Below are positions 24,701 to 64,000 of a stretch of DNA of 64,000 nt, in pieces. The stretch is from contig JBMNIF010000002.1 in NCBI GenBank assembly GCA_050950765.1, forward strand, positions 768,001 to 832,000, in the 5' to 3' direction. Positions within the stretch are counted from its first letter, which is position 1. Each line of letters opens with the position of its first letter. Source of the DNA: Bdellovibrionota bacterium. Lineage in GTDB: Bacteria > Bdellovibrionota_C > UBA2361 > JAAYZI01. The notes below the pieces were generated by a model. It searched no databases. It had not been told where the DNA came from and saw only the letters and a program-made list of their open reading frames with translations. The position numbers and the translations under genes are program-made.

Positions 24701-25813
24701 AAGTTTACCGTTTCTATTTATGGCACAGATATGCGTTGTGCCTGCTGAAAGTGCAGAAGCAGGATTCCCTTCAAGGGTACCACTAAGATCCGGATCTGCA
24801 TTGTAAATAGGGGTGGGGTTTTTAACTTTCTCGCTCTCATTATTATTAATCCCCAACTGCCCGAAATCGTTTTTACCCCAACAGAAAAGTTTCCCCTCTT
24901 CATCTATGGCACAGGTAAAACCGTATCCCGCAGAAACTTTAAGAACGCCTTTTCCATTTAATAATCCGTTAGAGGCTTCTTCACTTACGTCATAAATAGG
25001 GCTGGGGAGGAAGCGAGCACCTTTTTTATCTATTCCGAGTTGTCTAAAAGAGTTATCTCCCCAACAATAAAGTTTATACTCTTCGTTGATGGCGCAGATA
25101 TGGGTTGTGCCGGAGCTCTCTCCTTCTGAATAATCGTCGGTTGAAGCACCTACTGAAACAGCGATAACTTTTTTTGAATCAAGAAGACCACTATAAGAAA
25201 ATGTAGCTGGGTCTTCAATTAATTGTGGAACGTTGTAGCCAAAGCCTGAGATACCGATCCCTAATTGGCCGACACTATTCTCTCCCCAGCAGTAAAGTTT
25301 TCCGGAGGTGTTGATGGCGCAGGTATTATTGGCATTAGCAGAAACAGCAACAACACCTTCCTCTCCCAGTAGACCTGAAAAAGAGCTTGTAGCAGAGTCA
25401 TAAGTTAAAGTTGGAGATGTTGCGTTGTTAATGTTGTTAATTCCGAGTTGACCGGAAGAGTTAAGCCCCCAGCAATAGAGATGCCCTTCAGCAATAGCAC
25501 AGGCGTGAAAGTAGCCCATAGAGATGGAGCTTACTTTGGTCGCAAGATAAGATGCGTTATCTCCAGAGAGATCATGTTTTAGAGATAGCGATCTTTTTAA
25601 GATAGAAGAGAGAGAGAAGTTCTCAATATAAAAACTTTGTGATGTTGGTGGTGTTGGTAGCCTCTTTAGTAGATTGAAATTATAGCCATAGATTATAGAA
25701 GGGGCAGGGAAGAAGAGCTCTTCAGAGTAAGCTAATGGGAGAAGTGGCTTACAAAAAAGAGTGATAATTATCAGTAAGGTTATATATATGTTTTTTATAC
25801 TTAATTTCTGCAT
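15734..25813 (-). CDS. giant secreted RCC1-repeat protein (four beta-propellers, Cys-rich CNxIDDDCDG repeats, TSP3-like Ca-binding repeats, Pro/Thr stalks, basic C-terminal domain)
   Basis: Repeated VSAGxxHTCA...LYCWGxNxxGQLG blades; signal peptide from MQKL (25813); [13 protein letters not shown] motifs; GVCGCG..D.D.DG.PDC.D. Confidence 0.9.
16380..17280 (-). repeat. Pro/Thr-rich coding tandem repeats (~120-bp unit, [27 protein letters not shown]...)
   Basis: Near-identical units are visible in both DNA and protein. Confidence 0.9.
18335..18880 (-). repeat. three 180-bp coding repeats ([32 protein letters not shown]...[10 protein letters not shown])
   Basis: Period 180 (e.g. CAGTCATCATCGATAT recurring at ~18486, 18663-18666 and 18840). 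Confidence 0.85.
19190..23863 (-). repeat. three tandem propeller+stalk cassettes (~1578 bp); copies 1 and 2 nearly identical, copy 3 variant
   Basis: Identical shadow ORFs recur at 20508/22086/23664 (period 1578). Copy 3 is about 9 nt shorter and has swapped loops. Confidence 0.95.
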
Positions 25814-25839
25814 ATCTATCCCGCGATCCATGGGCTAAA

Positions 25840-26028: not shown

Positions 26029-26414
26029 GGAGCGGGCTGAAACTGAAAAGTGAATCGGTTAGGTTTTTACGGAGGTAAAAAATTCAACTTACTAGGAACG
26101 CTTGAACGGGCTGAAACTGAAAAGTGAATCGGTTAGGTTTTTACGGAGGTTAAAAAATTGAACGGGCTGAAACTGCAGAACGAGTTAGCTAGATCTTAAC
26201 GGAGGTTAAAACACCCTCTAAGGACGGCTGAACGGGCTGAAACTGAAAAGTGAATCGGTTAGGTTTTTTACGGAGGTTAAAAAATTGAACGGGCTGCAAC
26301 TGCAGAACGAATTAGCTAGATCTTAACGGAGGTAAAAAATTCAACTTACTAGGAACGCTTGAACGGGCTGCAACTGCAGAACGAATCAGCTAGGTTTTTA
26401 CGGAGGTTAAAAAT
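26029..26414 (+). repeat. cluster of six mosaic repeat units (GAACGGGCTG-core-ACGGAGGTTAAAAA)
   Basis: CGGGCTG at 26033, 26107, 26163, 26233, 26290 and 26364; two core variants plus one hybrid; linker TTCAACTTACTAGGAACGCTT occurs twice. Confidence 0.9.
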
Positions 26415-29265: not shown

Positions 29266-32200
29266 TTATTCGCACACTTCAATAACATCACTGAATCTTG
29301 TTAAAACCTGTTTCACGCTTCTTAGTTTTTTCCTTAAAGCTCGCACTTCTTTTTGACCTTTAACATTAAGTGAAACACCGTGCTTTTTTCCTAAGTTTAT
29401 TCCAGCTGTGGTGAGTCTTCTTAACCGTTCACTATTTTTGCGAAACTCCCGTTTTAAATTTCTTAAATACTTTTCGGAACACTTGTTTGGATTGCAAACA
29501 GTTGTTTCAAGTATAGGCAATTGAAAACTTTCATCATAAGCATCTTGGAAGGTTAGATACGCTTTAAGTCTCTGATTACCGATCTGGCGTTTAAAGGTAG
29601 TTTTATGTTTTCCACGTCTTAATAGGATCCCTAAGACCCTTCGAGAGCTACTATAAAGGTCTGCTAAAGAATTACCCAATATGATCCTTTCTGCCGTCAT
29701 ATCTCGCAAATTGGTGCAATTATTTAAAGCGCTATCTCTCGTTTTTTCACCTTTAAAGGTAAAGAAATTTTCGCTTATCTCTGCTGTGAGTGTTACCTTT
29801 GGTTTCTCCATATTGTAGGTGTATTTCTGCATACGGAAGATGTAGTTCCAGTTTTTTATACTATTCTTGAAAATGACGGTGCCAGTTGAATCGGTGTTGC
29901 GACACCCCAATTCACCGCCGCAAACAAGAGCGTTAGGAATACCGACTCTATCTTCCGTTATCTTAACATTGAAGGTGACCTTTCTACCTCTATCGGGTTG
30001 AGCAACTTCATTGATAACAGCGAAGTTATTACTCACTCCACTTGCGCCACTAGTTACGTGTTGCGCCGTAATTGTCACAACACCACTGTTTCTTAATCTT
30101 ATGATGTGTTCAGAAAGGATGCCGTTTAAAAACGGTTGTGTTGTGCCTGTTCCTCGTCTTGCCGTAGCACCTGAAACGGAAACTTCAACACTTTCTTGGA
30201 AGTGATCAACTAAATTGTTGTATCTATCAAAAGCGGTGATCTTAATAGCAAAATCTTTTTTGATCAGTTGAGTTGGGATAAATCCTCCGACAATATTTTC
30301 AATTCTAAAATATCCAACCGTTGCAGCTTGAACTCTGAATTGATTTGATACTCCGCTTTGAGTGCCGTTACTGTATCTTGCGGTGAGGATATGTTGTCCC
30401 GCTAAAGTTAAAGTTACGGCATGAGAACTTAAGACTCCGTTTGTAAAGGGTGCGCTCACTTTTCCACTTACAACTTCAGAGATATCGGAGGTTATATTAA
30501 CAGTGCCGTTAAATCTATTCGCTAAATTATTATAAACATCATAGGCGGTGATCTTGACATTAAAAGGCGTTCCCGCAGTTTGAAGTCCGATCTCGCCGCC
30601 TGCTGCGTGCACTAGGGTGAAGTGGTCAAGGGTCGTGTGCACTACATCAAAATTATTTGAGGGGCCTACTTCTTCTCCTACACTATTTTTTGCTAAAAGT
30701 GAAAATGTTCCTGCTTTAGTTAATTTAATTGTGTGAAGAAGCTCTCCGTTCGTGAGAGGTGGTGTTGTGCCGCCACCTTCTTGAATGGCACCTTCAGATA
30801 TACTTATCTCAGTAGTTCCGTTAAAAGATCTAACCGTATTATTAAAGATATCGAGAGCGCGGATCTTTATTCTAAACGGCACCCCTGCCGTCTGCTCTAA
30901 GATATTGCCTGTAACCTCACCTTCAATTCTAAAATGATGAAGCGCTGTGTGTATTATAGTAATGTCATTGCTTCGACCGTTCCTACCTGTAACCTCATCT
31001 GTTGCAATAATAACGGAGATACCTGCTAATGAAAGACTGACATTGTGCTCTGCTAAAAATCCGTTAACGAAGTTTGCCGTTGCACCAGCACCAGAAAGTA
31101 GGTTCCCTGTTGATGAGATAGTAGTCGTGCCGTTAAAAGATTTAACGATATTTTCGAATTCATCGAGAGCTGTGATCTGGATAGGAAAAACTTCACCAGC
31201 ATAGTGATCTGAAATATTACCACCGTGTTTCTTTTCAATTAAAAATCTATAAAGTGGCGCATGTGTGACGTTAAATTGATTAGTTGTGCCGCTAGATCCA
31301 GAAAGTGCTTCGGTAGCACTTATAATATATCCATCTAAAGCAGTTTCTATATTTAGCTTATGGTTTGTTAAAACTCCTGCTGTAAAGTTTGGTGTTATGC
31401 CTCCGCCACCTGCAAGAGAGCCTATATTTGACGACAGATTCACTGTACCTGTAAAACTTGTTGCGGTGTTATTGTAGCTATCACGAGCTGTGATAGTTAT
31501 ACCGAAGTCCACTCCCGCAATCTGAGCAGCCACATCTCCACCTCCGTGAGCTTCAACGAGAAGGTTGTTGATGTTGCCGTGAGTGACGTTAAAGGTGTTA
31601 CTGTTTGAAGTTTTTTCTGCAGATTCTGCGGATTCTTTACCCGTTGCGGAGATATGAGTATCTCCAACACTACTGAAAGCAATGTCGTGTCTTGCTAAGA
31701 AGCCGTTTACAAAGGCGTTACTAACTCCCTCACCTTCGCGCAGAGTTTTGTTTGAGCCTATATTAACTGTTCCGTTAAAAGTTGTGACCCGATTGTCGTA
31801 CTTATCTAGCGCTGTGACCTGAATTGAAAAAACGTTATCGGTACTTTTCTCCGTAATATTACCACCTGTGCCAGCAGTTTCAATCAGAAATTTTTCAAGG
31901 TTTGTATGAGAGACTTCAAAAGCGTTACTCTCTGATTCGGTTGTTCCGCTTCTAACGGTGATCGTACAATCTTCAGCGGCGCTTGTTAATGTTATTTTAG
32001 TGCTAGCTAGAGTGCCTGCTGCCAAAGCAACTTCATTTTCCGTATCTTCGCTTAAGGCGCAGTTTGATGATATGGTTACCTTTTCACTAAAAGTTGTGAG
32101 TGTTTCATTCTCTTCATTTTCAGCTGTGATCTGAATATAAAAAGGCACTCCCGCCTCCTGTGCTCCTATGGCAGTGCCGGAGATAGCAGTTCGTATTGAA

Positions 32201-34827
32201 AAATGATCCAGAGGAGCATCTATCATGATAGGTTTGGCAGTACTTGTTACACCGTGAGAGTAAACGGTAATAAGAGCGGGACCGATAGGGATAGCTGGCG
32301 GAACCGTTAAAGTATAGTAAGTAGTATCACTCCATGGACTTGATGGATTTGGTGTTAAGAAAGTTCGATAATCTTTATGTAGTAAACTACGGACCTGTGC
32401 TAGAGGATAGTTGGTAGCAGAGGTATTGTTACCAGAGCCACTTGCTTCTGAACTTCCGATAAAATTTTCTCCGCTAAGATTTACCCTTAATCCGTTAAGA
32501 AGCGTAGAGGTAGTAATGATTGGTCGTTGAGAGTTGCTGGAAAGGTAATTTGCTTGGAAAAATTCAACACTGTTATTAGCTGCTATGGTAGTGAGGTTCC
32601 AGCCGCCTAATAAAACGATGCTATTATGTGGAGAAAAGTGTGCGGTGTGTGCACTCTTCGTAGCTGAAAGGCTTGGTCCTGCTGAAAAATCTTCTGCAAG
32701 TGGATCAAAGATTTCGGTGCTTTTAAGAGCAGCGCTATCGCTACTCTGTCCACCTATAACCACTACACGTCCATCAGGAAGGAGTGTAGCAGTGTGTCCA
32801 TCTCGTGCGTTTGTTAAAGTTTCTGTGACTGTTGTCCAAGAAGTTCCGTTATAAATTTCAGCAGAGTTAAGCCTGCCCGAGCTGTTTTTTCCACCGATCA
32901 ATAAAAGGGTATCGTTTAAAAGTGTAGTTGCTGAGTGATTGGTTCTAGCAACTTGTATGGCAGAAGATGTCCAAAGATCATCAGTTGGATTGTAATCTTC
33001 GGCATTCGATAGATATGTATCTGTTGTAGTATTGTAGCCACCTGCTACCAGCACATGACCGTTAGAAAGTAGCGTTGTAGTGTGACCGTAACGAGCGGTA
33101 TTTAAAGAACCACTTTCTTGCCAACTATCTGTGATGTAGTCATACAGTTGTGTGACATCAGATTCTATGGCAGCAGGAGTTATGGCGCTTTGTCCACCGA
33201 CAATTAAGACTTTGTTGGAATCTAGAAGGATAGCGGAGTGTTTGGTTCTTGCGGTACCGTTAACTGTTGATTCTAAGCCGCTACAACTCTCCCAAGTGTT
33301 GTTGTTGGGATTGTATATTTCAGCAGAGCTTAAAAGAGTACCGTTTAAATCGCTTTCACCACCAACAGCCAAGACCCTACCATCAGGCAAAAGGGTTAAG
33401 GTGTGATTTTGGCGTGGGCTTAACATATCTGCCACGGCTGTGGATTTTGTTAAGGCTGTATCATAAATTTCAGAAGAGGTAAGGACTGTGCCGGAAGCGT
33501 TCCTACCACCACTTAATAAGATCTTGCCGTTAGCAAGAAGTACAGAAGCGTGATTTAGTCGAGGTGCCTTTAGACGTTGCTCTGATGATGCGATATTCGT
33601 TTCATCACTTAAGTAACGTAGCCGCTCTGCAACAGCTAGGGGTGTACCGTTATCACCTCCAACCGTTAAAAGGGTACCATCAGGCAGAACGGTCAAAGTC
33701 AGATTGCTGCGCGCTTGGCTTAGAGTTGTATCCGCTAGCAACGTCCATCTGTTTTGAGACGGTGTATAAATTTCTGCGTTATCGAGGTAAGGAGCCGTTG
33801 CATTTTCTCCACCGAGTACGATTATCCTACCATTTGGTAAGAGTGTAGCAGCGTGATATTTACGGTCGTTGTTTACCTCTCCTGCTTCGCTCCAACTTCC
33901 TAAGCCGCTTGAGGGGGTGTAGATCTCACTCCATTGATAATTTCCGACAACAACGACTTTACCGTTAGGAAGTGTTGTGGCGGTGTGTCCTGATCTCGGA
34001 AGTTGAAGAGATGCTCCCGCAGACCAGCAATCGCTGATCGGATCGTAAATCTCTGTTGAATCAAGATCGTTCCCTTCTGAATCTTCTCCGCCGCAGACCA
34101 AGACCCTACCATCAGTAAGTAGTGTAGCAGTATGCTTCTCCCTACTGGTGGAGAGCTCTGCCGATTGCCCATCTTCCGGTAGTGGACAGGTCGTTCCTGA
34201 AAAACGTTTCTGATTCGGGTTGTAGATCTCAGTAGCTTGGCTATCCAGTCCGCCACAGATAAGAACAGTACCGTTTTTTAAGAGTGTCATGGTGTGGCTC
34301 GCTCTCGGGATCGCCATACTGTTATTTGTTGCAAGCCAAGAGCCTGTTCTAGGATTGTAGATCTCAGCACTACTTAAAGCTGAACCTGAATAGCCGAGAC
34401 CACCACTAATAAGAACATCACCCGTTTTTAGTAGTAATGCGGCGTGATTCTTTCTGGCAGTACTTATGGGAGCACCTGCTGTCCAACTATTTGTAGAGGG
34501 CGAGTATAATAGAGTTGTGTTAAGCACAGTTCCGAAATTATCAACTCCACCTACTACTAAAACTTCCCCTGAAGGGAGGAGGGTGGCACTATGAGCACTC
34601 CGTTCGCCGATAGCTCCAGTAGAAAACCATTTTGAGAGGTTGATCGTTTCAGCACTACATATCTGATTATTTGCAAAGATCGTAAGGAGTGTAAAAAGGA
34701 GACTTAAAAAGAGGTTATAAAGGTGAGGTCTAAATTTAAAGTCGATCTTTATTGTTGCGAAACTAAGATATCTCTCTGCTATTTTGCAGCGATCGACTGA
34801 TTTTGAATATCTTCTTAATAGAAACAT
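29266..34827 (-). CDS. secreted Kelch-repeat (double propeller) protein with tandem Ig-like repeats and a basic helical C-terminal domain
   Basis: About 14 R..HTATLL.DGRVLVxGG....AEIY.P....W repeats; about 7 AG..F.I.ITA.D...N....FNGT..I repeats; Lys/Arg-rich C-terminus with paired Cys. Confidence 0.85.
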   Translation of the reverse strand: MFLLRRYSKSVDRCKIAERYLSFATIKIDFKFRPHLYNLFLSLLFTLLTIFANNQICSAETINLSKWFSTGAIGERSAHSATLLPSGEVLVVGGVDNFGTVLNTTLLYSPSTNSWTAGAPISTARKNHAALLLKTGDVLISGGLGYSGSALSSAEIYNPRTGSWLATNNSMAIPRASHTMTLLKNGTVLICGGLDSQATEIYNPNQKRFSGTTCPLPEDGQSAELSTSREKHTATLLTDGRVLVCGGEDSEGNDLDSTEIYDPISDCWSAGASLQLPRSGHTATTLPNGKVVVVGNYQWSEIYTPSSGLGSWSEAGEVNNDRKYHAATLLPNGRIIVLGGENATAPYLDNAEIYTPSQNRWTLLADTTLSQARSNLTLTVLPDGTLLTVGGDNGTPLAVAERLRYLSDETNIASSEQRLKAPRLNHASVLLANGKILLSGGRNASGTVLTSSEIYDTALTKSTAVADMLSPRQNHTLTLLPDGRVLAVGGESDLNGTLLSSAEIYNPNNNTWESCSGLESTVNGTARTKHSAILLDSNKVLIVGGQSAITPAAIESDVTQLYDYITDSWQESGSLNTARYGHTTTLLSNGHVLVAGGYNTTTDTYLSNAEDYNPTDDLWTSSAIQVARTNHSATTLLNDTLLLIGGKNSSGRLNSAEIYNGTSWTTVTETLTNARDGHTATLLPDGRVVVIGGQSSDSAALKSTEIFDPLAEDFSAGPSLSATKSAHTAHFSPHNSIVLLGGWNLTTIAANNSVEFFQANYLSSNSQRPIITTSTLLNGLRVNLSGENFIGSSEASGSGNNTSATNYPLAQVRSLLHKDYRTFLTPNPSSPWSDTTYYTLTVPPAIPIGPALITVYSHGVTSTAKPIMIDAPLDHFSIRTAISGTAIGAQEAGVPFYIQITAENEENETLTTFSEKVTISSNCALSEDTENEVALAAGTLASTKITLTSAAEDCTITVRSGTTESESNAFEVSHTNLEKFLIETAGTGGNITEKSTDNVFSIQVTALDKYDNRVTTFNGTVNIGSNKTLREGEGVSNAFVNGFLARHDIAFSSVGDTHISATGKESAESAEKTSNSNTFNVTHGNINNLLVEAHGGGDVAAQIAGVDFGITITARDSYNNTATSFTGTVNLSSNIGSLAGGGGITPNFTAGVLTNHKLNIETALDGYIISATEALSGSSGTTNQFNVTHAPLYRFLIEKKHGGNISDHYAGEVFPIQITALDEFENIVKSFNGTTTISSTGNLLSGAGATANFVNGFLAEHNVSLSLAGISVIIATDEVTGRNGRSNDITIIHTALHHFRIEGEVTGNILEQTAGVPFRIKIRALDIFNNTVRSFNGTTEISISEGAIQEGGGTTPPLTNGELLHTIKLTKAGTFSLLAKNSVGEEVGPSNNFDVVHTTLDHFTLVHAAGGEIGLQTAGTPFNVKITAYDVYNNLANRFNGTVNITSDISEVVSGKVSAPFTNGVLSSHAVTLTLAGQHILTARYSNGTQSGVSNQFRVQAATVGYFRIENIVGGFIPTQLIKKDFAIKITAFDRYNNLVDHFQESVEVSVSGATARRGTGTTQPFLNGILSEHIIRLRNSGVVTITAQHVTSGASGVSNNFAVINEVAQPDRGRKVTFNVKITEDRVGIPNALVCGGELGCRNTDSTGTVIFKNSIKNWNYIFRMQKYTYNMEKPKVTLTAEISENFFTFKGEKTRDSALNNCTNLRDMTAERIILGNSLADLYSSSRRVLGILLRRGKHKTTFKRQIGNQRLKAYLTFQDAYDESFQLPILETTVCNPNKCSEKYLRNLKREFRKNSERLRRLTTAGINLGKKHGVSLNVKGQKEVRALRKKLRSVKQVLTRFSDVIEVCE

Positions 34828-37557: not shown

Positions 37558-40071
37558 ATGGAATCAGATCTCACTGTTTCAGTTGATATCGAACGTGAAA
37601 TGAAGCAGTCCTATATGGACTATGCCATGAGTGTGATTATCGGCAGAGCACTGCCAGATGTCAGAGATGGCATGAAGCCCGTACAGAGACGTGTCCTATT
37701 TGCAATGATGGGCGAAGGTCTTCTTTCAACGAAAAAAACATCAAAGTGCGCTGGTGTTGTGGGAGAGGTCTTGAAGAGGCTGCATCCGCACGGAGACTCC
37801 TCTGTTTATGATGCTCTTGTTCGCTTAGCACAGCCGTGGGCGATGCGTTATCCGTTAGTTGATGGGCAGGGTAATTTTGGTTCCATAGATGGAGATCCTG
37901 CAGCAGCTTACCGTTATACTGAATGTAGGATGACAGCACCTGCTGAGATGCTCTTAGAAGATTTAGATAAAGATGCTGTCGACTTCATGCCGAACTTTGA
38001 TGATACCTCACTTGAGCCAGTAGTGTTACCTGCGGCGTGGCCCAATCTTTTAGTTAATGGTACTGATGGTATCGCTGTCGGTATGGCGACTCATATTCCA
38101 CCGCATAACCTCAGTGAAGTTATTGAGGGTGCTATCGCACTAATAAAAGATCATAACATCACGGTTGACGACCTGATGCAGTACATCCCTGGACCAGACT
38201 TTCCAACAGGCGGCATCATCTACGGTCGTTCTGCTATCCGTAGGGCTTATGCGGAGGGGCGTGGCATCTTGAAAGTTTCTGCTAAGGCGCACGTTGAAAC
38301 ATTAAAAACAAAGACGCGTGAAGTTGAAGCGATAGTTGTTACTGAGATCCCTTTTCAGGTCAATAAAGCTAGATTGATTGAAAAGATAGCTTCCTTAGTG
38401 AATGACAAGACGATTGATGGGATCTCTCGTTTACGTGATGAGTCTGATAGGAAGGGTTTGCGTATTGTCATTGAGTTGAAGCGAGATGCTACTGCTAGCG
38501 TAGTGCTTAATCAGCTCTATAAATTAACACCGATGCAGACCAGCTTCGGAGTGATTAATTTAGCGATCGTGGCAGGTCGTCCGATGGTGCTCTCTCTAAA
38601 AGAGATCCTTGATAATTTTATCGGACACCGTAGAGATGTTGTTACAAGACGCACGCAGTTTTTACTTAAAAAAGCACAAGCTCGGATGCACATCTTAGAA
38701 GGGTTGTGTATCGTCTTATTACATATCGATGAAGCTATTCAGATTATTAAACAGTCAGAAACGGTTCAACTCGCTAGACAAGGTTTAATGTCTCGTTTTG
38801 ATCTTTCAGAAATACAAGCACAGGCGATCTTAGATCTCCGTTTACAGAAATTAACCGGACTTGAAAGGTTGGCGATTGAAAAAGAGCGTGATGATTTAGC
38901 TGTTGAAATCCAGCGCTTAAAGGATATCCTTTCTGATGCTTTAAAAGTTGATGGTGTCATTATTGATGAATTGCGTGCTTTGCAGGAGCGTTTCGGTGAT
39001 GCTAGACGTACAGAGATTCAAGAAGCTGAGACGGAAGATTATGAAGATGAAGATCTAATTGAAGTTGAAGATATGTGCGTTGTTGTTTCGCATAAAGGGT
39101 ACGCCAAGCGCACTCCTGTCACGGAGTTCCGTTCTCAAAGACGTGGTGGAAAAGGTGTAGCAGGAACTGCTGCAACGGATGATGATTTTACAGAGATGCT
39201 TTTTGTTGCTTCTACGCATGATGTGCTCTTAATCTTTACGACGGAAGGACGCTTATTGTGGTTGAAGGTATATCAAATTCCTGAAGCAGGACGCACCGCC
39301 AGAGGTCGAGCTCTGATCAATCTGTTAAACTTAAGAGAAAACGAAAAGGTTGCCGCCATTTTGCCGATCTCTGACTTTAATTCAGAAAGTCATGTTTTTA
39401 TGGCTACTAAGCAGGGATACGTTAAGAAGGTTAAACTCTCCGAGTTTAGCAGACCACGCAAGGGTGGCTTAATCGCTTGTGTACTAAATGATGGCGATCG
39501 CTTAATCGGTGTTGAGTTAACGGCAGCAGGTGATGATATTGTGTTAGCAACGAAGAACGGTATGTCGATTCGTTTCGAAGAGAGTGATGTTAGGGCGATG
39601 GGACGTGTTGCACGTGGAGTGCGTGGTATCCGTTTGGATGATGCGGATGAAGCGGTCGGCATGACGGTGGTGAGATCTGCTGAACATCTTGCTGCTATTG
39701 GAGAAGATCCTGCGGCTGAAAAAAGTTTATTAACTGTTTGTGAAAACGGATACGGTAAGAGAACTCTTTTCTCTGATTATAGGTGTCAGAAGCGTGCTGG
39801 AAAAGGTTTGATAGATATTCAAACAGGAGAGAGGAACGGACAGGTTGTCGGTGTTTGTGCTGTTGATGATAATAGTGGACTGATGCTTATCACCTCTGCT
39901 AGTAAGGTCATCCGTATTAGTGCTGAAGGGATCTCGGTGGTTGGACGCAATACGAAGGGAGTCAGACTTATTAACTTGGAAGAAGGCGAAAAAGTTTTGG
40001 CGATCGCTTTTATTGCAGATGATTCTTCTGATGAAAATGGTGATGAGGATGCAGAAGGGGAAGACGGGTAG
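37558..40071 (+). CDS. gyrA: DNA gyrase subunit A
   Basis: [34 protein letters not shown] catalytic Tyr, GyrA-box QRRGGKG, acidic tail. Confidence 0.97.
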
Positions 40072-40073
40072 TC

Positions 40074-40235
40074 TTTTCCATCTCCGAGAGGAGGAGGGGC
40101 AACGGCTGATTTATGGCGTTACCTTATTCAGTATCGGGAGGGAGGAAAAAAGTTTTTTCCATTTTCGAGAGAAGGAGGGCGACGGCTGATTTGAGGCGTT
40201 ACCTTATTCAGTATTGGGAAGGGGAGGAAAAAAAC
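40074..40235 (+). repeat. two-copy 80-bp intergenic tandem repeat
   Basis: ACGGCTGATTT..GGCGTTACCTTATTCAGTAT.GGGA recurs with period 80 (GGCGTTACC at 40115 and 40195). Confidence 0.85.
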
Positions 40236-43292: not shown

Positions 43293-43835
43293 AGAGCGGG
43301 CTGCAACTGCAAAGCAGATCGCTAGTTTTTTACGAGATTAAAAATCTGGTGCCACCCACCAGTGACGAAAGACGCTAAAATTACAATAGTTAATAATATC
43401 AAGATATTAGCAAAAGTTATGGGTTTGACAGATCTGGTGCCACCCTTCAGTTTTGGGCAGATCAGCCAAATCTTGGTTGGAGTGAATTTGGTGCCACCCT
43501 TCAGTTTTGGGCAGATCAGCCAAATCTTGGTAGCTGTCATTGGTGCCACCCTTCAGGGACGACAGAACGGGCTGATACTAAAAAACGAAGTAGCTAGTTT
43601 TCTACGAAGGTTAAAAATTTGGTGCCACCCTTCAGGGACGACAGGACGCTAAAATTGCAATAGCTAATAATATCAAGATGTTAACAAAAAGCTAGGATTT
43701 GGTGAATTTGGTGCCACCCTTCAGTTTTGGGCAGATCAGCCAAATCTTGGTAGCTGTCATTGGTGCCACCCTTCAGGGACGACAGAACGGGCTGATACTA
43801 AAAAACGAAGTAGCTAGTTTTCTACGAAGGTTAAA
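43293..43835 (+). repeat. mosaic repeat cluster (left part): GAACGGGCTG units, TGGTGCCACCC palindromes, IHF sites
   Basis: TGGTGCCACC at 43347, 43435, 43489, 43541, 43620, 43709 and 43761; 220-bp higher-order duplication; TATCAA-N4-TTA at 43397 and 43671. Confidence 0.9.
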
Positions 43836-45412
43836 CCCTAACTCTTCATATTTCAGGAATATATTTCAATAAAAAATTAAATATCCTTTAAAAAAGGTAT
43901 TGTGCTTTAAAAATATTGGTGTATTATATATTACGTATTGCGTAATACGTTAGGAGATATATATCATGACATATCCAGATTGGGTTTTGAAAGAAAAAAA
44001 GAAAGGCACTGAGGTAGTTCACAGGAACGGCAAATATTATTTGTATAAAATAAGTTCTGTGTGGAATAAGGAAAAGGGACGTGCTCAGAAGGTTACCTTA
44101 GAATACCTTGGCAGGATAACTGAAGATAAGGGTCTTATTCCCCCTAAACGTAGGGGTTCTTACAAAGATGGAGAAGTTTCTGCAAAGGAGTATGGAGCTA
44201 GCAAAACACTTTGTGAGTTAGGAAAAGACATATTAAATCGCTTAGAAGATAGGTTTCCGAATGATTATCAAAAGATTTTTTCTATTGCTGCTTTAAGAGT
44301 AATTGAGCGTTGTCCGTTTAAGGGGATTGATTTTTTGTATGAGAAATCTTTTTTATCTGAACGCTTCGGAAAGCTTGCTCTATCTTCCTCTAGCATATCA
44401 AGGTTTTTAAGGGAGCTAGGTAGCCAGAGACCAAAGTTAGTTGGTTTTATGAAAGAGTATGTTTGCGATGTTGATTATCTTTTTTTTGATTTAACAAATA
44501 TAATAAGTAAATCGGAAAATGTTGAAATAAATAGAGTTGGCTATAACAGTCATCATGATTTTGATCCTCAAATTGGCTTAATGTATGCTTTTTCAGCGGA
44601 TGACAGTTCTCCCACTTATTACAGAGTTATTCCTGGAAATATAAGAGATGTGAGGGCATTTAAGGGGAGTATAGAAGAGGCTGGTATAAAGGATGCTGTA
44701 ATAGTTGCAGATAAAGGGTTTGGCTCACAAGAGAATTTTAAGTTATTAAAAGAAGCTAATTTAAAATATATTGTTCCATTAAGGCGCAATAATTCAAACA
44801 TAAACAGAGAGATTTTAAGATGTGGAGACAAGTCTAAGTTTGAAAATTTTTTCTTTCATAATGCTCGTCCTATATGGCCTTACTCATATAAAATAAACGA
44901 AGATCGTCTTATTGTTTGTCTTGATGAATCGCTTAAGGCTAGAGAAGAGGCTGATTATCTGCGTAGAGTTCAAGAGAATATAGAAGGCTACACAAAAGAA
45001 GGTTTTATCGATAAACAATACCAATTCGGAACGATTACTTTTCAAACAAATCTCGATTTACCATGCGACAAGGTATTTTGTTTATATAAGGCAAGAAATG
45101 AAATAGAGATGACATTCGATTTTTTAAAAAACCTATTAGAGCAAGATCGTGTATACTTGCAAGATAAATATGCGATTGAAGCTTGGGCGTTCATAAACCA
45201 TATTTCACTTATGCTTGTTTATTTGATATATCATAAACTTAAAGAAAGTGAACTTATTTCTAAATATTCCATTCAAGAATTTATTACACATCTTAAATAT
45301 ATAAGTTATTTAAAAATCGGAGACTCGTGGGTAGTAAGTGAGATTTCAGGTAAAACACAAAAAATTTTAGAAAAATTAAAAATTCATATTACGCAAACGT
45401 GAAGAGTTAGGG
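43836..45412 (+). mobile_element. IS1634-like insertion sequence, 1577 bp
   Basis: Terminal IR CCCTAACTCTTCA (43836-43848) / TGAAGAGTTAGGG (45400-45412), extending imperfectly inward; 6-bp TSD GTTAAA at 43830-43835 and 45413-45418. Confidence 0.92.
43966..45402 (+). CDS. DDE transposase (IS1634/IS4-like)
   Basis: YYLYKISSVWNKEKGRAQKV..EYLG N-terminus, FFDLT, ADKGF, Y.AR.EIE..F..LKN; stop codon lies inside the right IR. Confidence 0.92.
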   Translation: MTYPDWVLKEKKKGTEVVHRNGKYYLYKISSVWNKEKGRAQKVTLEYLGRITEDKGLIPPKRRGSYKDGEVSAKEYGASKTLCELGKDILNRLEDRFPNDYQKIFSIAALRVIERCPFKGIDFLYEKSFLSERFGKLALSSSSISRFLRELGSQRPKLVGFMKEYVCDVDYLFFDLTNIISKSENVEINRVGYNSHHDFDPQIGLMYAFSADDSSPTYYRVIPGNIRDVRAFKGSIEEAGIKDAVIVADKGFGSQENFKLLKEANLKYIVPLRRNNSNINREILRCGDKSKFENFFFHNARPIWPYSYKINEDRLIVCLDESLKAREEADYLRRVQENIEGYTKEGFIDKQYQFGTITFQTNLDLPCDKVFCLYKARNEIEMTFDFLKNLLEQDRVYLQDKYAIEAWAFINHISLMLVYLIYHKLKESELISKYSIQEFITHLKYISYLKIGDSWVVSEISGKTQKILEKLKIHITQT

Positions 45413-45655
45413 GTTAAAAATTTGGTGCCACCCTTCAGGGACGACAGAACGGGCTGATACTAAAAAACGAAGTAGCTAGTTTTCTACGAAGGTTAAAAAT
45501 TTGGTGCCACCCTTCAGGGACGACAGAACGGGCTGATACTGAAAAACGAAGTAGCTAGTTTTCTACGAAGGTTAAAAATTTGGTGCCACCCTTCAGGGAC
45601 GACAGGACGCTAAAATTGCAATAGCTAATAATATCAAGATGTTAACAAAAAGCTC
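45413..45655 (+). repeat. mosaic repeat cluster (right part), 79-bp units
   Basis: TGGTGCCACC at 45423, 45502 and 45581; IHF consensus TATCAAGATGTTA at 45632. Confidence 0.9.
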
Positions 45656-50713: not shown

Positions 50714-51046
50714 AAAGTAGGTGAGGGTAAAAAGAGCGTTTAGAGTTCTGTTAGGTTAGTAAAGTAGGTGAGGTAAAAAGCGTTTAGAGTTCCGTTAAGT
50801 TAGTAAAGTAGGAGAGGAAAAAAGCGTTTAGAGTTCTGTTAGGTTAGTAAAGTAGGAGAGGAAAAAAGCGTTTAGAGTTCTGTTAGGTTAGTAAAGTAGG
50901 AGAGGAAAAAAGCGTTTAGAGTTCTGTTAGGTTAGTAAAGGAAGAGAGGTAAAAAGGGTGTTTAGATTTCCGTTAGGTTACTAAAGTGAGTGAGGTAAAA
51001 AGCGTTTAGAGTTCCGTTAATTCACTAAAATAAGAGAGGTAAAAAG
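50714..51046 (+). repeat. 44-bp tandem repeat, ~7.5 copies (VNTR)
   Basis: GCGTTTAGAGTT(C/T) core at 50736, 50780, 50824, 50868, 50912, 50958 (degenerate) and 51002. Confidence 0.95.
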
Positions 51047-59221: not shown

Positions 59222-61819
59222 ATGAATAAAGAATACTTAAAAGATATTAGGGTAGGTTTTGCTGATAGAGGGAGAGCTTTTTGTGTCTGTTTAAATGTTA
59301 TGCAGTTAAATGTTATGCAGATACTTTTTATCTCGGTGCTCCTCTCTTTTATTATCCTGTTTTTTACAAACATTGCTCTCTCTCAAACAGTTACAGCAGG
59401 GTCGCTACAATCAGTAAGTGCTGGGGCAAATCATACCTGCGGCATAACAACAGATAGTAATAAAAATGTATACTGTTGGGGAAGTAATGAGTTTGGACGG
59501 TTAGGAAATGGAAGTGCGGTTGATAGTTCAGTGCCGGTAAAAGTAAAGGGGGGAGGACAGGGGGGAGCTTTTTTAAATGGGGTAAGTCAAGTTGCAGCGG
59601 GGTATTATCATACTTGTGCTGTTACAACAGGTGGAGAGCTCTACTGTTGGAAGGGTAGTTGTATAGGGTGTGGAAGCACTCCTGTTAGAGTTTTAAAAGG
59701 GGAACAAGAAAGTTCTGGCACATATTTAGAAGATATAAGTCAAGTTTCTGCTGGAAGTCAGCATACCTGTGCTGTTACAACGGGTGGAGAGCTTTACTGT
59801 TGGGGAAGTAATCTTTATGGGCAATTAGGAATCGGTTCTAAAGGCTCTGGAGGAAGACCTACTAGAGTTTTAAAAGGGGAACAAGGAAGCTCTGGCTTAT
59901 ATTTAGAAGATATAAGTCAAGTTTCTGCTGGATATGGGCATACCTGTGCCATAACAACAGGTGGGGAGGTTTATTGTTGGGGTTGGAATAATTACGGACA
60001 ATTAGGGATTGATTCTACGGAAAATCAAAGCACTCCTGTTAGGGTTTTAAAGGGAGAGCAAGAAAGTACCTGCTTATATTTAGAAGATATAAATCAAGTT
60101 TCCGCTGGAGGTAATCACTCTTGTGCTGTAACAGGAGGTAGAGAGGTTTACTGTTGGGGATGGAATCGTGTTGGACAGTTGGGGATTAATTCTGCGCTTA
60201 ATCAAAGTATTCCTGTAAGGGTTTTAAAAGGGGAGCAGGCAAGCTCTGAAATATATTTAGAAGATATAAGTCAAGTTTCTGCTGGAAGTCAGCATACCTG
60301 TGCTGTTACAACGGGTGGAGAGCTTTACTGTTGGGGAATGAATTCTCAAGGTCAGTTGGGAATCAATTCTACGTTAGATCAAACTACTCCTGTTAGGGTT
60401 TTAAAGGGAGCGCAAACGGGGAATGATACATATTTAGAAAATATAAGTCAAGTTACTATCGGATTTCTTTCTCTCTGCGCAGTAACAACAGGTGGGGAGC
60501 TTTACTGTTGGGGGAGTAATTTTAAGGGACGATTAGGAGATGGGACAACCACGAATCGTTCAGTGCCCGCTAAAATTTTCGATGGCTCTGGATCTGCGCC
60601 GTGTCAAAATGCCTGTTGTGCGCACTGGGGTTATGAAAATGTAGGAGAGGTTTGCTCCGCTGAGAGGATGTTTGATTGTTACGGAGCAGCAGGAGATTAT
60701 AGTGTAGTTTGTGGGAAAGATATCCCCAGCTGTTACGGAGATGCTAGGTATAATCAGATAGGGCAGTTTTGTACAACAGGTAGCGGAAACTGCATAGCCG
60801 CAGGCGATTATACCTGTTCCGGATCATCTCCTGATTCTTCCGTAGTGTGTGGCATTACTAATGTTGCACCATCTTGTTGCGAAGATGCGCTCTTTAGCAG
60901 AATCGGTAGCGCCTGTTCTAAAATAAATGGTAACTGTACTGCTACGGGTACGTACGTTTGTAGCGGTACTGAAACAGGTAGTAGTGTCAGGTGTAATATT
61001 ACTAATAATGGCGCTGCTTGCTGTGCTGATCCAAATTATATGTTACTAGGTACAGAGTGTTATAGCGGAGAGGGTGTTTGTAGAAGCGCAGGCACTTATA
61101 TCTGTGGAGGTTCTCTTACAAATAGCAATATAGTATGTAATGCAGTTCCGAACCTAGCTAATGCAGTTCTTGAAAATACAGAAGCTCTCTGTACAGATGG
61201 GCTTGATAATGATTGCGACGGTTTGCCAGATGAACTAGATCCTGATTGTGACCTCTGCCCTCTTGATAATAACAAATTATTCCCAGGGGTTTGTGGCTGC
61301 GGCATAGCTGATATTGATAAAAATCGTAATGGCATCATAGATTGTCTTGATCCGAAGTTACCAGCGGCAAAGATAAATAGTATCGTTACTAAAGAGACAG
61401 AGCCTATTAAGCCGCGAGTAGATGTGGTGAGGAGAAAGGTTATCGTTTATATGCAACGTTTTAACCGCGCAGAGTTACAAAACTTAAATATTGCAAATAA
61501 GTATGCTCGTAAGAAGGGTAGAAGAAATAAAAAGAGAGGTGATAAGATTACCTTTAAGTATGAAGTCTCTATGAGGTTAATCTCCGCCAATAAGATAACC
61601 AGTAAGAAAAATACAAATCGTACTAGGAAAAAGGTGCGCTCCCCTATCTCGAAACATAATAAGGTAGTCCTTAAGAAACAACGGAGAGGAGTCTACGAAG
61701 TTAAATACAGAATTAAGATTTATAAAAATGGTAAGTTTTTAAAGAACACAGAGTGGAGTGGTACTAGAAGAGTTGCGGTTCCGAAAAGAATAGTCTTCCC
61801 AAGGAGACCTAACTTGTAA
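59222..61819 (+). CDS. secreted RCC1-repeat protein with Cys-rich modules and basic C-terminal domain
   Basis: Seven RCC1 blades, CQNACCAHW cap, [31 protein letters not shown]-rich C-terminus. Paralogue of the giant gene. Confidence 0.9.
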   Translation: MNKEYLKDIRVGFADRGRAFCVCLNVMQLNVMQILFISVLLSFIILFFTNIALSQTVTAGSLQSVSAGANHTCGITTDSNKNVYCWGSNEFGRLGNGSAVDSSVPVKVKGGGQGGAFLNGVSQVAAGYYHTCAVTTGGELYCWKGSCIGCGSTPVRVLKGEQESSGTYLEDISQVSAGSQHTCAVTTGGELYCWGSNLYGQLGIGSKGSGGRPTRVLKGEQGSSGLYLEDISQVSAGYGHTCAITTGGEVYCWGWNNYGQLGIDSTENQSTPVRVLKGEQESTCLYLEDINQVSAGGNHSCAVTGGREVYCWGWNRVGQLGINSALNQSIPVRVLKGEQASSEIYLEDISQVSAGSQHTCAVTTGGELYCWGMNSQGQLGINSTLDQTTPVRVLKGAQTGNDTYLENISQVTIGFLSLCAVTTGGELYCWGSNFKGRLGDGTTTNRSVPAKIFDGSGSAPCQNACCAHWGYENVGEVCSAERMFDCYGAAGDYSVVCGKDIPSCYGDARYNQIGQFCTTGSGNCIAAGDYTCSGSSPDSSVVCGITNVAPSCCEDALFSRIGSACSKINGNCTATGTYVCSGTETGSSVRCNITNNGAACCADPNYMLLGTECYSGEGVCRSAGTYICGGSLTNSNIVCNAVPNLANAVLENTEALCTDGLDNDCDGLPDELDPDCDLCPLDNNKLFPGVCGCGIADIDKNRNGIIDCLDPKLPAAKINSIVTKETEPIKPRVDVVRRKVIVYMQRFNRAELQNLNIANKYARKKGRRNKKRGDKITFKYEVSMRLISANKITSKKNTNRTRKKVRSPISKHNKVVLKKQRRGVYEVKYRIKIYKNGKFLKNTEWSGTRRVAVPKRIVFPRRPNL

Positions 61820-61821
61820 GA

Positions 61822-61853
61822 AGTTTTTTAAAAGCGGAAGCTTTTAAAAAACT
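61822..61853 (+). terminator. perfect hairpin, probable terminator
   Basis: AGTTTTTTAAAAGC-GGAA-GCTTTTAAAAAACT: 14-bp stem with GNRA loop, immediately after the stop codon. Confidence 0.7.
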
Positions 61854-61888
61854 GTCTATCTTGGGGGAAAGTTGGGAAGTTGGCGTTC

Positions 61889-61991
61889 GGAGATGAACGC
61901 CCCTAGTTTTAGGGGTGGGAGCGTCTGATGGTGTAAATATACAATATCACGGGGGAGATGAACGCCCCTAGTTTTAGGGGTGGGAGCGTCT
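61889..61991. repeat. repeat-spacer-repeat unit (two identical 38-bp hairpin repeats, 27-bp unique spacer); CRISPR-like mini-array or REP pair
   Basis: GGAGATGAACGCCCCTAGTTTTAGGGGTGGGAGCGTCT at 61889-61926 and 61954-61991; no cas gene in the window. Confidence 0.8.
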
Positions 61992-62095
61992 AGTTGCCAA
62001 TTTAATTTATACAGATTCAGCTATATTTAATAAGAAACACCTATAAAAAGGTGACACTAAAAACCAAAAAAAGTAACTACAAGGGTAAAAAAACC

Positions 62096-62123
62096 TTAAG
62101 TTTTCCTACGATACTGCCGATAA
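62096..62123 (+). promoter_or_regulatory. sigma28 (FliA/SigD)-type promoter
   Basis: TTAA-GTTTTCCTACGATACT(16)-GCCGATAA, with a perfect -10 element. Confidence 0.75.
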
Positions 62124-62184
62124 AACTAAGGATTGATATCGACTCACTAAAATGGGGTGTGGGATTACTCTCTTAAGGGTTCAG

Positions 62185-64000
62185 ATGAATAAAAAGAATT
62201 TGAAGGATATTAAGGTAGGTTTTGCTAAGGGGGAGGGAGTTTTTAGCAAGCACTTAAAAACCGTAAAGCTCTTTTTTATTCCGATGAGCCTCTCTTTTAT
62301 TACTCTATTTTTTACAAACGTTGCTCTTTCTCAAACAGTTACAACAGAATCGTTGCAATCAGTAAGTGCTGGGGCAGGTCATACCTGCGGCATAACAACA
62401 GATAGTAATAAAAATGTAGAGTGTTGGGGATTGAACTCTTCCGGACAATTGGGGATCAATTCTGCGGTTGATAAAACCACCCCTGCTAGAGTTTTTAAAG
62501 GAGAGCAGGATGGCTTCGGTTTATACTTAGAGGATGCAAGCCAAGTTTCTGCAGGTCATGATCATACCTGCGCCGTAACAGGAGATGGAGAGCTCTACTG
62601 TTGGGGAAATAATAGCACCTCACAATTAGGGAATAATGGTCCAACTGGATATCACACTACCCCTGTTAGAGTTTTAAAAGGAGAGCAAGGAGGTGTAGGT
62701 ACATATTTAAAAGATGTAAGCCAAGTTTCTGCTGGATATGGTCATACCTGTGCCGTAACAACACAAGGAGAACTCTACTGTTGGGGAGATAATGACTATG
62801 GGCGGTTGGGAATAAATCCTTCAACTTGGTCGGCAACCACTCCTGCTAGGGTTTTAAAAGGAGAACAGGGAGGTGCAGGTACGTATTTAAAAGATGTAAG
62901 CCAAGTTTCTACTGGAGCTAATCACACCTGTGCCGTAACAACACAAGGAGAACTCTACTGTTGGGGAGATAATGACTATGGGCGGTTGGGAATAAATCCT
63001 TCAACTTGGTCGGCAACCACTCCTGCTAGGGTTTTAAAAGGAGAACAGGGAGGTGCAGGTACGTATTTAGAAGATGTAAGCCAAGTTTCTGCTGGAGAAT
63101 ATCATACCTGCGCCGTCACAACTCAAGGAGAGCTCTACTGTTGGGGTTTAAATTTCACTGGACAATTGGGGATTAATTCTACCTTAGATCAAACTATCCC
63201 TGTTAGAACTTTAAAAGGTGAACAAGGTGGTGTAGGCACATATTTAGAAGATGTAAGTCAAGTTTCCACTGGGAAATATTATACTTGTGCTGTAACAACA
63301 GGTGGAGAGCTTTACTGTTGGGGATTAAATTCCTCCGGACAGTTGGGGAACTATTCTACCTTAGATCAAAGCACCCCTGTTAGAGTTTTAAAAGGAGCGC
63401 AGACAGGTATAGGGTCATATCTAGAAAATATAAGTCAAGTTACTACGGGGGATATTCACACCTGTGGTGTAATAACAGGTGGTGAGCTTTACTGTTGGGG
63501 CAATAATACTATTGGCGAATTAGGTGATGGCACAACCACTAATTATTTAACACCTGCTAAGATTTTTGATGGTTCCGGATCTGCACCGTGTCAAAATGCC
63601 TGTTGTGCGCACTGGAATTACGGAAATATAGGGGTAGCGTGTTCTGCCGAAAATGTATTTGGGTGTTACGGAGCAGCAGGAGGTTATAGCGTAGTTTGTG
63701 GAGAAGATGCACCGACAGGAACTCCTACTCCTTCTCCTACCCCCACACCTAGTTTAGATGCTTGTCCAGATGATCCGAATAAAACTGAACCTGGAATTTG
63801 CGGTTGTGGCGTACCTGATGTTGATAATAATCATAATGGCATTATTGATTGCCTAGACCCGAAGGTGCCGACGGAGGACGTCGTTACTCCAAAGACTAAG
63901 CCTGCTACTCCTGAAGTAAAGTTAAGAAAAAGAAATAATATCGTTGTTTTTATGCAACGGTTTAAACGTGCAGAGCTGCTGCAAAGATTTAGTAACGTCT
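62185..64000 (+). CDS. secreted RCC1-repeat protein, 3'-truncated by window end (absent from ORF track)
   Basis: Open frame from ATG 62185: MNKKNLKDIKVGFA..., signal peptide, seven blades, CQNACCAHW, PT linker, [24 protein letters not shown], then the start of the basic domain (PEVKLRKRNNIVVFMQRFKRAEL). Confidence 0.9.
   Translation, partial: MNKKNLKDIKVGFAKGEGVFSKHLKTVKLFFIPMSLSFITLFFTNVALSQTVTTESLQSVSAGAGHTCGITTDSNKNVECWGLNSSGQLGINSAVDKTTPARVFKGEQDGFGLYLEDASQVSAGHDHTCAVTGDGELYCWGNNSTSQLGNNGPTGYHTTPVRVLKGEQGGVGTYLKDVSQVSAGYGHTCAVTTQGELYCWGDNDYGRLGINPSTWSATTPARVLKGEQGGAGTYLKDVSQVSTGANHTCAVTTQGELYCWGDNDYGRLGINPSTWSATTPARVLKGEQGGAGTYLEDVSQVSAGEYHTCAVTTQGELYCWGLNFTGQLGINSTLDQTIPVRTLKGEQGGVGTYLEDVSQVSTGKYYTCAVTTGGELYCWGLNSSGQLGNYSTLDQSTPVRVLKGAQTGIGSYLENISQVTTGDIHTCGVITGGELYCWGNNTIGELGDGTTTNYLTPAKIFDGSGSAPCQNACCAHWNYGNIGVACSAENVFGCYGAAGGYSVVCGEDAPTGTPTPSPTPTPSLDACPDDPNKTEPGICGCGVPDVDNNHNGIIDCLDPKVPTEDVVTPKTKPATPEVKLRKRNNIVVFMQRFKRAELLQRFSNV

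Follow-up and report, generated by a model that had tools for sequence, protein, structure and literature searches.

Ectopic gene conversion between dispersed paralogues is classically represented by the tufA and tufB genes of Salmonella, which are inverted and located far apart. In Neisseria, pilE is altered by segmental conversion from the silent, truncated pilS cassettes, and a guanine-quadruplex (G4) element is located at pilE. For vlsE of Borrelia, segmental conversion from silent vls cassettes is described (PMC11499132, PMC9159922). In the fungus Podospora anserina, the HNWD NLR genes (het-d, het-e, het-r and nwd) contain WD40 repeats of high internal conservation, which are shuffled within and occasionally between paralogues; their allelic variability is high, and short reads assemble them poorly, so that long reads are needed (PMC12222747). 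In addition, the blades of beta-propellers are described to amplify and differentiate (Pereira and Lupas, 2022, PMC9218822; cited for RCC1 in 10.1101/2023.11.21.568195). Here, a window of 64,000 nucleotides (nt) from the genome of a Bdellovibrionota bacterium was analyzed (positions 768001-832000 of contig JBMNIF010000002.1, in the following C2; coordinates without a contig name refer to the window). It contains g2, a gene for a predicted secreted RCC1 propeller, the centre of which is a mosaic of tracts that are letter-identical to other RCC1 genes of the same genome. This mosaic is probably the result of gene conversion between these genes.

The mosaic in g2 and the encoded propeller

The gene g2 (62152-64000, + strand, extending beyond the window to 64266, C2:832266) encodes a protein of 704 amino acids (aa) and is the middle member of three tandem paralogues. 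It is preceded by g1 (59222-61819, + strand, 865 aa, seven blades) and followed, just beyond the window end, by g3 (64695-67280 on the window scale). In a promoter and terminator scan between g1 and g2, the counts did not exceed those due to chance. In the same window, the open reading frame (ORF) call and an exact-match scan revealed a giant RCC1 gene of 3365 aa (15734-25831, - strand), which consists of a diverged N-terminal propeller, three tandem propeller cassettes of 1578 nt, Cys-rich and PT-like repeats and a basic C-terminal domain. Each of the cassettes codes for a whole propeller plus linker, and cassettes 1 and 2 are a tandem duplication with 1335 exact nt in common (20951-22285 and 22529-23863).

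Two long tracts of g2 are identical to the giant gene, as stated in the original prediction and confirmed here by direct comparison and by a maximal-exact-match scan of the window. Tract A (62536-62889, + strand, 354 nt) agrees in 354 of 354 letters with the reverse complement of 23237-23590 in cassette 1 (- strand) and equally with its copy at 21659-22012 in cassette 2, due to the 1335 nt common to these cassettes; it runs from the second half of blade b8/b15 to the first half of b10/b17. Tract C (62886-63146, + strand, 261 nt) agrees in 261 of 261 letters with the reverse complement of 20013-20273 in cassette 3 (- strand; second half of b23 and b24), including the alleles private to this cassette, and differs from cassettes 1 and 2 at nine of the 261 positions. 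The predicted three-way mosaic therefore is real; its extent, however, had been set too small, since two further tracts, both of the g3 type, carry it on to position 63325. The first of these (63077-63170, + strand, 94 nt) overlaps the end of tract C and corresponds to C2:833413-833506 (65413-65506), the second (63172-63325, + strand, 154 nt) to C2:833151-833304. Their order is permuted, the 154-nt piece being located upstream of the 94-nt piece in g3. In total, 790 nt (62536-63325) are tiled with foreign exact tracts, with the exception of the single base 63171.

Beyond these 790 nt, g2 has no exact run of more than 54 nt with any RCC1 region. The flanks resemble the neighbouring paralogues, as had been noted before, with 76% identity to g1 and 84% to g3 in the 5′ part, 77-78% to the best paralogues in the last blade and cap and 65% at the 3′ end. 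In a global alignment of g2 with cassette 1, the identity outside the run is 60.8%, and a run of 354 was obtained in none of 5000 column shuffles; the 354-nt run is not due to chance. The exact tracts cover all synonymous sites. Identical tracts that are sharply bounded by diverged homologous sequence, the pattern asked of ectopic conversion, are thus present in g2.

Tracts A and C overlap by 4 nt (62886-62889). In the cassette register, the start of tract C is set back from the end of tract A by one blade of 180 nt (offset 3147; 20063-20233 equals 23210-23380), which resulted in a direct repeat of 144 nt in g2 (62746-62889 equals 62926-63069) and in seven CWG-delimited blades. The five junctions of the mosaic are located at the blade framework motifs and at CWG/LN, where nucleotide conservation in the blade alignment is highest. 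Both the position of the junctions in the framework and the retention of seven blades, as judged from motif positions and the CWG count, are in agreement with the original prediction.

The g2 protein starts with a hydrophobic, signal-like N-terminus, as read from the sequence, followed by seven RCC1 repeats, a Cys-rich cap, a PT linker and a very basic stretch of 120 C-terminal aa. In the latter, no Pfam or NCBIfam family was detected, and the Atlas search gave only Ig/fn3-like leads. The Pfam search assigned PF00415 to seven stretches (E-value 5.1e-66), PF13540 to seven stretches and PF25390 with an E-value of 5.2e-81, and seven [YFE]CW[GK] motifs each were counted in g1, g2 and g3. The closest solved sequence is UVR8 (4d9s, E-value 1.7e-64). 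An AlphaFold2 (AF2) model of residues 55-490 (predicted local distance difference test, pLDDT, 89; predicted template modelling score, pTM, 0.89) contains 28 strands in seven groups of four. With seven tandem repeats of 50-60 residues and a fold of four-stranded blades, g2 has both hallmarks of the RCC1 family.

According to the strands of the model, a g2 blade consists of SQVSAG (strand A), a two-residue turn before His, HTCAVT (strand B) and ELYCWG (strand C), followed by the long loop xNxxGQLGxxxxxxxxTP, PVRVLK (strand D) and the excursion GEQGGxGTYLxD. The A-B and C-D loops of a four-stranded meander share one face, and these two loops are the most variable columns of the blade alignment. 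Among 27 distinct blades, the ratio of nonsynonymous to synonymous differences per site (pN/pS) reached 2.21 in the A-B turn, compared to 0.66 in the C-D loop and 0.08-0.55 in the strands, calculated from uncorrected distances and non-independent pairs and, for the A-B turn, from about two codons. These values give only a hint of diversifying selection on the A-B turn. Most blades are 60-80% alike, and g1, g2, g3 and the sister allele described below (P0002) are all seven-bladed.

Sister alleles and contigs from other samples

The assembly comprises 2.64 Mb in five contigs without any N, and the genome is 94% complete. The protein search with GyrA revealed named relatives of 64-67% identity, namely metagenome-assembled genomes (MAGs) labelled Bdellovibrionales, Bdellovibrionota, Oligoflexia and Deltaproteobacteria, whereas the search of GyrA against genome contigs gave only matches of about 50%, to unrelated phyla. 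None of 30 species representatives of close relatives carries the locus. In the relative G026, a short-read MAG with many RCC1 matches, the blades of two loci are 60-78% alike and have no exact tracts. Sister loci in metagenome contigs were searched with the unique C-terminal 250 aa of g2 and with the upstream flank gene, and none was found in the searched set, which may omit near-identical records. Likewise, no short fragment of a g2 allele above 42% identity was present among the 120 matches listed for proteins below 387 aa. In literature searches on RCC1 and gene conversion and on RCC1 and Bdellovibrionota, no account of such a mosaic was found. The stretch itself could be detected in public runs of at least 15 studies on bioreactors, digesters, wastewater and landfill. 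The contigs of four runs from four studies (X1, X2, X3 and X8) were aligned onto 61800-64000. X1 may be the source sample; in X2, X3 and X8, positions 62984-63057 are uncovered, and such a gap in the cover carries no weight as absence.

One close relative of g2 was found by protein search. This sister allele, P0002, is a protein of 692 aa with 97% identity to g2; its gene is located on a 3450-nt contig from a different source. In the alignment (A1), it equals g2 at all aligned residues except for two patches. Patch 1 (aa 187-242; 62710-62877, + strand) is one blade-sized unit between two TYL/xDVSQVS sites. Here, the reference has the giant-gene sequence and P0002 a different blade, for which no identical donor is present in this genome, the best match having 82% aa identity. 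Patch 2 (aa 401-407; 63324-63384, + strand), identified from the alignment and the X3 contigs, reads YSTLDQS in the reference and NSTYQRP in P0002.

For patch 2, nucleotide data are provided by X3. Alongside a reference-type contig of depth 50, this run contains a contig at depth 47 that has 22 differences within the 61 nt of 63324-63384 and none in the following 616 nt (63385-64000). If the 22 changes are applied to the reference, the peptide of P0002 is obtained exactly. Since 10 of the 15 changed codons differ only synonymously, the block was replaced and not mutated. Furthermore, the loop NYSTLDQSTP, which P0002 has in blade 3, is found in blade 6 of the reference; at least two events must therefore separate alleles that are otherwise identical in protein. 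Two alleles that differ in two patches and in no other aa suggest that recombination, rather than mutation, drives the variation at this locus, and since strains differ by blade-sized patches, the process yields allelic diversity. A contig of X8, in which 28 other letters (hand-read as ..GHTCAITTG) are joined to 63127-63252, hints at a further mosaic.

The borders of the mosaic were also recovered independently of the reference assembly. A 177-nt contig (62389-62565) spans the left border without any difference in X1 and X2, which belong to two studies; it has 30 letters on the tract side, as a 31-word graph yields. A 141-nt contig of X3 (63117-63257) spans both the right border of tract C and the joint at 63171. 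At 62536, 62886 and 63146, loose contig ends occur that correspond to the flanks of the giant gene itself. In the reference assembly, dozens of identical insertion sequence (IS) copies of 1.5-1.8 kb, two ribosomal RNA (rRNA) operons and the 1335-nt tandem cassette are all resolved within contigs, as is usual for assemblies from long reads. The mosaic is real biology. Three apparent variants, namely loose ends at 62430, a joint 63324>63160 and a 1771-nt contig of X2, were rejected because they represent the reference's own g1, g3 and giant-gene sequence.

Probable gene conversion and its rivals

The mosaic in g2 is probably explained by recurrent ectopic gene conversion of the RecA type among paralogous RCC1 propellers, with the blade framework as homology. 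The central 790 nt would have been overwritten recently and repeatedly by non-reciprocal homologous recombination. The putative templates are the tandem paralogue g3 and the giant gene, which is inverted relative to g2 and located 39 kb upstream of it. As the homology is provided by the near-invariant nucleotide stretches coding for the blade framework, the tracts end at the framework, and blades, whole or in halves, would travel as units together with their variable loops. Selection would retain seven blades and the open frame. If the locus changes by patches faster than by point mutation, co-occurring strains would come to bear different sets of propeller loops. For all this, only the general machinery of the cell would be needed, and a RecA was detected in the genome with one match (E-value 1.4e-133). 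General homologous recombination also predicts exact tracts beyond the blades, and these were found: the 3′ ends of g1 and g3 have 579 exact nt in common (61284-61862 and C2:834745-835323, i.e., 66745-67323), which span the basic C-terminal domain and continue for 43 nt after the stop codon, and Cys-rich units of the giant gene share exact inverted tracts of 41-67 nt with a gene at C2:568 kb. The 579-nt sequences are direct repeats flanking g2, by which a deletion or duplication of g2 could occur.

For the direction from the giant gene to g2, parsimony can be invoked. A single conversion after the split of the strains accounts for the match with the giant gene as well as for the deviation of P0002, whereas the opposite direction needs two; this is an argument from parsimony, not a proof, and the base composition and the G + C content at third codon positions (GC3) of tracts and backbone do not discriminate the direction. 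The tracts with their sharp borders, the diverged flanks, the allelic patches and the lack of a reverse transcriptase or a nearby recombinase are direct observations, whereas we infer non-reciprocity, this direction and any effect on binding.

Several observations weigh against gene conversion in the form proposed. The reference-specific joint of tracts A and C (62886-62889) is covered only in X1, at a depth of 16-21, and the record bridging it there is not among the 32 of 122 pieces listed; in X2, X3 and X8, all contigs over 62890 have the giant-gene letter. The P0002 allele is known as protein alone, except for patch 2, and it is the only full alternative allele that was seen, the metagenome scans giving none. 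The left border adjoins an indel of 6 nt and has little homology beyond it. MutS and MutL, with one match each in the genome, should oppose recombination between sequences that are about 75% alike. Moreover, non-reciprocal transfer is presumed by parsimony from the sister allele.

An alternative that appears unlikely is a reciprocal crossover between the inverted identical tracts, which would flip the 39-kb segment between them, so that successive flips would have made the mosaic by swapping halves of g2 and the giant gene. With 354 and 261 nt of perfect inverted identity in a common reading frame, the tracts are well suited as substrates for RecA, and a crossover at these repeats necessarily inverts the segment. 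However, no joint between a g2 flank and a giant-gene flank is present among the joints listed for the four runs, in which contigs cannot reveal rare forms. The segment also carries gyrA, gpsA and other housekeeping genes, besides a prepilin peptidase, two sigma-54 response regulators, an IS and other ordinary genes, and an internal patch requires two crossovers. There is no break of the GC skew at 23.6 or 62.5 kb; the skew tracks the coding strand and is hence uninformative.

The import of a mosaic allele as a whole, made in another strain and acquired by allelic recombination so that the tracts record events elsewhere, is quite unlikely. The organism was found in runs from at least 15 studies, and a single sample can contain more than one allele, which would be compatible with such an exchange. 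The tracts, however, are letter-identical to the genome's own giant gene and g3, including the private alleles of cassette 3, which makes templates in the same cell the simplest assumption.

A further alternative is a dedicated, programmed diversification system; a candidate recombinational diversification system had been suggested in the original prediction. In a programmed system, g2 would be an expression site that is actively and frequently rewritten from donor blades in the manner of pilE/pilS or vlsE, thereby varying a binding or antigenic surface. Junctions within framework motifs, a sister allele with two patches and no other aa difference, two alleles in X3 that differ only in a patch at nearly equal depth (47 and 50) and, as a hint only, the pN/pS of 2.2 in the A-B turn codons would fit this idea. 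It is nevertheless very unlikely, since the marks of a system are missing. No silent cassette array was found: eight of the nine other RCC1-like regions of the genome lie within ORFs of 871-1814 aa, most of them with signal-peptide-like starts, and the remaining one comprises the first 197 nt of contig C3. A G4 motif (G3+N1-7 x4) is absent from both strands of the 64-kb window. Neither a reverse transcriptase (PF00078) nor a serine recombinase (PF00239) was matched in the genome, which is 94% complete; the three matches to tyrosine recombinases (PF00589; C2:471 kb, C2:1063 kb and C3:313 kb) are more than 230 kb away from the window on C2 or located on another contig, in line with the original prediction of a process without a reverse transcriptase or a dedicated invertase. 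In addition, exact tracts occur beyond the blades and between other paralogues, and the two co-occurring alleles may be two strains, as contigs cannot separate strains from switching. From the predicted diversification system, gene conversion as the best explanation and the allelic patches are therefore retained, whereas the system itself is not.

An artefact of assembly or polishing, by which giant-gene reads were misplaced on g2 and homogenized it, is highly improbable: although the family is hard to assemble, as three contigs (C1, C2 and C3) break off within another RCC1 repeat cluster, and the joint of tracts A and C is covered in X1 only, long identical repeats are resolved inside contigs as by long reads, the left border is found in X1 and X2 and the right border and the 63171 joint in X3, and the same architecture recurs in P0002, which stems from another assembly, at the left border, at one further junction and at CWG/LNFT.

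With gene conversion as the preferred explanation, the locus is a clean and datable case of this process reshaping a predicted secreted binding protein in an uncultured bacterium. It follows for practice that RCC1-family genes of such genomes are untrustworthy if derived from short-read assemblies and that whole-gene trees of the RCC1 paralogues mislead. In a wider and tentative reading, which is possible but doubtful, the RCC1 paralogues would form a repertoire fed by recombination, in which blades circulate between the giant gene as a 'reservoir' of three near-identical propellers and the small, predicted secreted single-propeller genes. Conversion would outpace point mutation and supply each strain of the lineage with its own loop set on the binding face of the propeller, for the recognition of prey, phage or substrate. 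If the loops bind prey or phage, this would be a route by which the lineage varies its recognition surface, and the repertoire, if true, would have its fungal equivalent in the HIC-repeat NLR receptors, from which it would differ in being bacterial and extracellular.

Surroundings of the locus and comparison with known systems

In the regions 16496-17278 and 18336-18880, the 3′ part of the giant gene contains repeats of 114/156 nt, which on the gene strand code for a Thr/Pro/Ala-rich (PT-like) linker, and three Cys-rich units of 177 nt. In X3, the depth of the tract that g2 shares with cassettes 1 and 2 of the giant gene is 232 compared to about 50 for unique g2 sequence, which may reflect variation of the cassette number between strains. 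Directly downstream of g3, on the opposite strand (C2:835431-840591, i.e., 67431-72591), a MoxR-type ATPase, a repeat protein of 652 aa and a membrane transglutaminase-like protein of 732 aa are encoded, as named by eye from the translations.

Other members of the RCC1 family are located elsewhere in the genome. A second cluster of long RCC1 genes is distributed over C2:1240984-1252138, C1:540278-543884, C3:1-8100 and C4:82-478; its genes encode 1036-1814 aa with a common signal peptide (MKHIHAVLFSLSLF...) and have exact repeats of 1436, 989 and 707 nt. As the three contig ends mentioned above fall inside this cluster, it is not resolved in the assembly. At C2:316771-319542, an RCC1 ORF of 923 aa lacks a leader, begins directly with blades and adjoins an IS copy (319526-321093), so that a 5′-truncated member of the family is probable here.

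The region of the window is rich in large, predicted secreted repeat proteins, among them a Kelch-propeller protein of 1853 aa (29266-34827) and a TSP3-repeat protein of 1772 aa (6805-12123). An IS with a DDE_Tnp_1 transposase (43831-45412), identical copies of which are located at C2:1206546 and C5:16223, is inserted in a non-coding repeat array with units on both sides (43435-43835 and 45412-45654). Further non-coding tandem arrays with periods of 127, 80 and 44 nt are found in the intergenic regions 26033-26413, 40070-40233 and 50714-51046.

The binding face of surface proteins is likewise varied by diversity-generating retroelements (DGRs) and by invertase shufflons. The g2 locus differs from DGRs in that no reverse transcriptase was matched in the genome and the differences are blocks copied from paralogues and not adenine-specific, and from shufflons in that there is no serine recombinase and the tyrosine recombinases are far from the segments. 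It resembles vlsE and pilE, as short segments are copied from homologous donors elsewhere into a gene for a surface protein (in the case of g2, a predicted secreted one), resulting in mosaic alleles. In these systems, however, one expression site is combined with arrays of silent truncated cassettes, whereas the putative donors of g2 are long open genes, and the G4 cis element of pilE has no counterpart in the 64-kb window.

With conversion of the tufA/tufB type, g2 has in common the letter-perfect tracts with diverged flanks, the inverted copies tens of kb apart and the dispensability of a dedicated enzyme. Unlike in tufA/tufB, the tracts in g2 are short, multiple and out of register, derive from several donors and move variable loops; the outcome is a diversity of alleles, in contrast to the homogenization of two genes. 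The amplification of propeller blades agrees with g2 in that blades are evolutionary units with near-identical neighbours (144 of 180 nt exact in g2) and that a cassette of 1335 nt was duplicated. That model acts within one gene, whereas here blades are exchanged between genes, which adds to the picture.

Among repeat proteins, the HNWD genes appear to be the closest case to the g2 mosaic. Both have propeller units with a conserved framework, and in both an exchange between paralogues takes place; the variable A-B and C-D loops of the RCC1 blades may correspond to the few hypervariable surface positions of the HNWD repeats. The HNWD genes differ as fungal genes for intracellular immune receptors, and their units are of the WD40 and not of the RCC1 type. 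All repeats of an HNWD gene are 80-100% alike and their number is variable, whereas here most blades are 60-80% alike, with identity confined to patches, and g1, g2, g3 and P0002 all keep seven of them. The best reading of the g2 locus is a new example of a known process and not a new dedicated machine.

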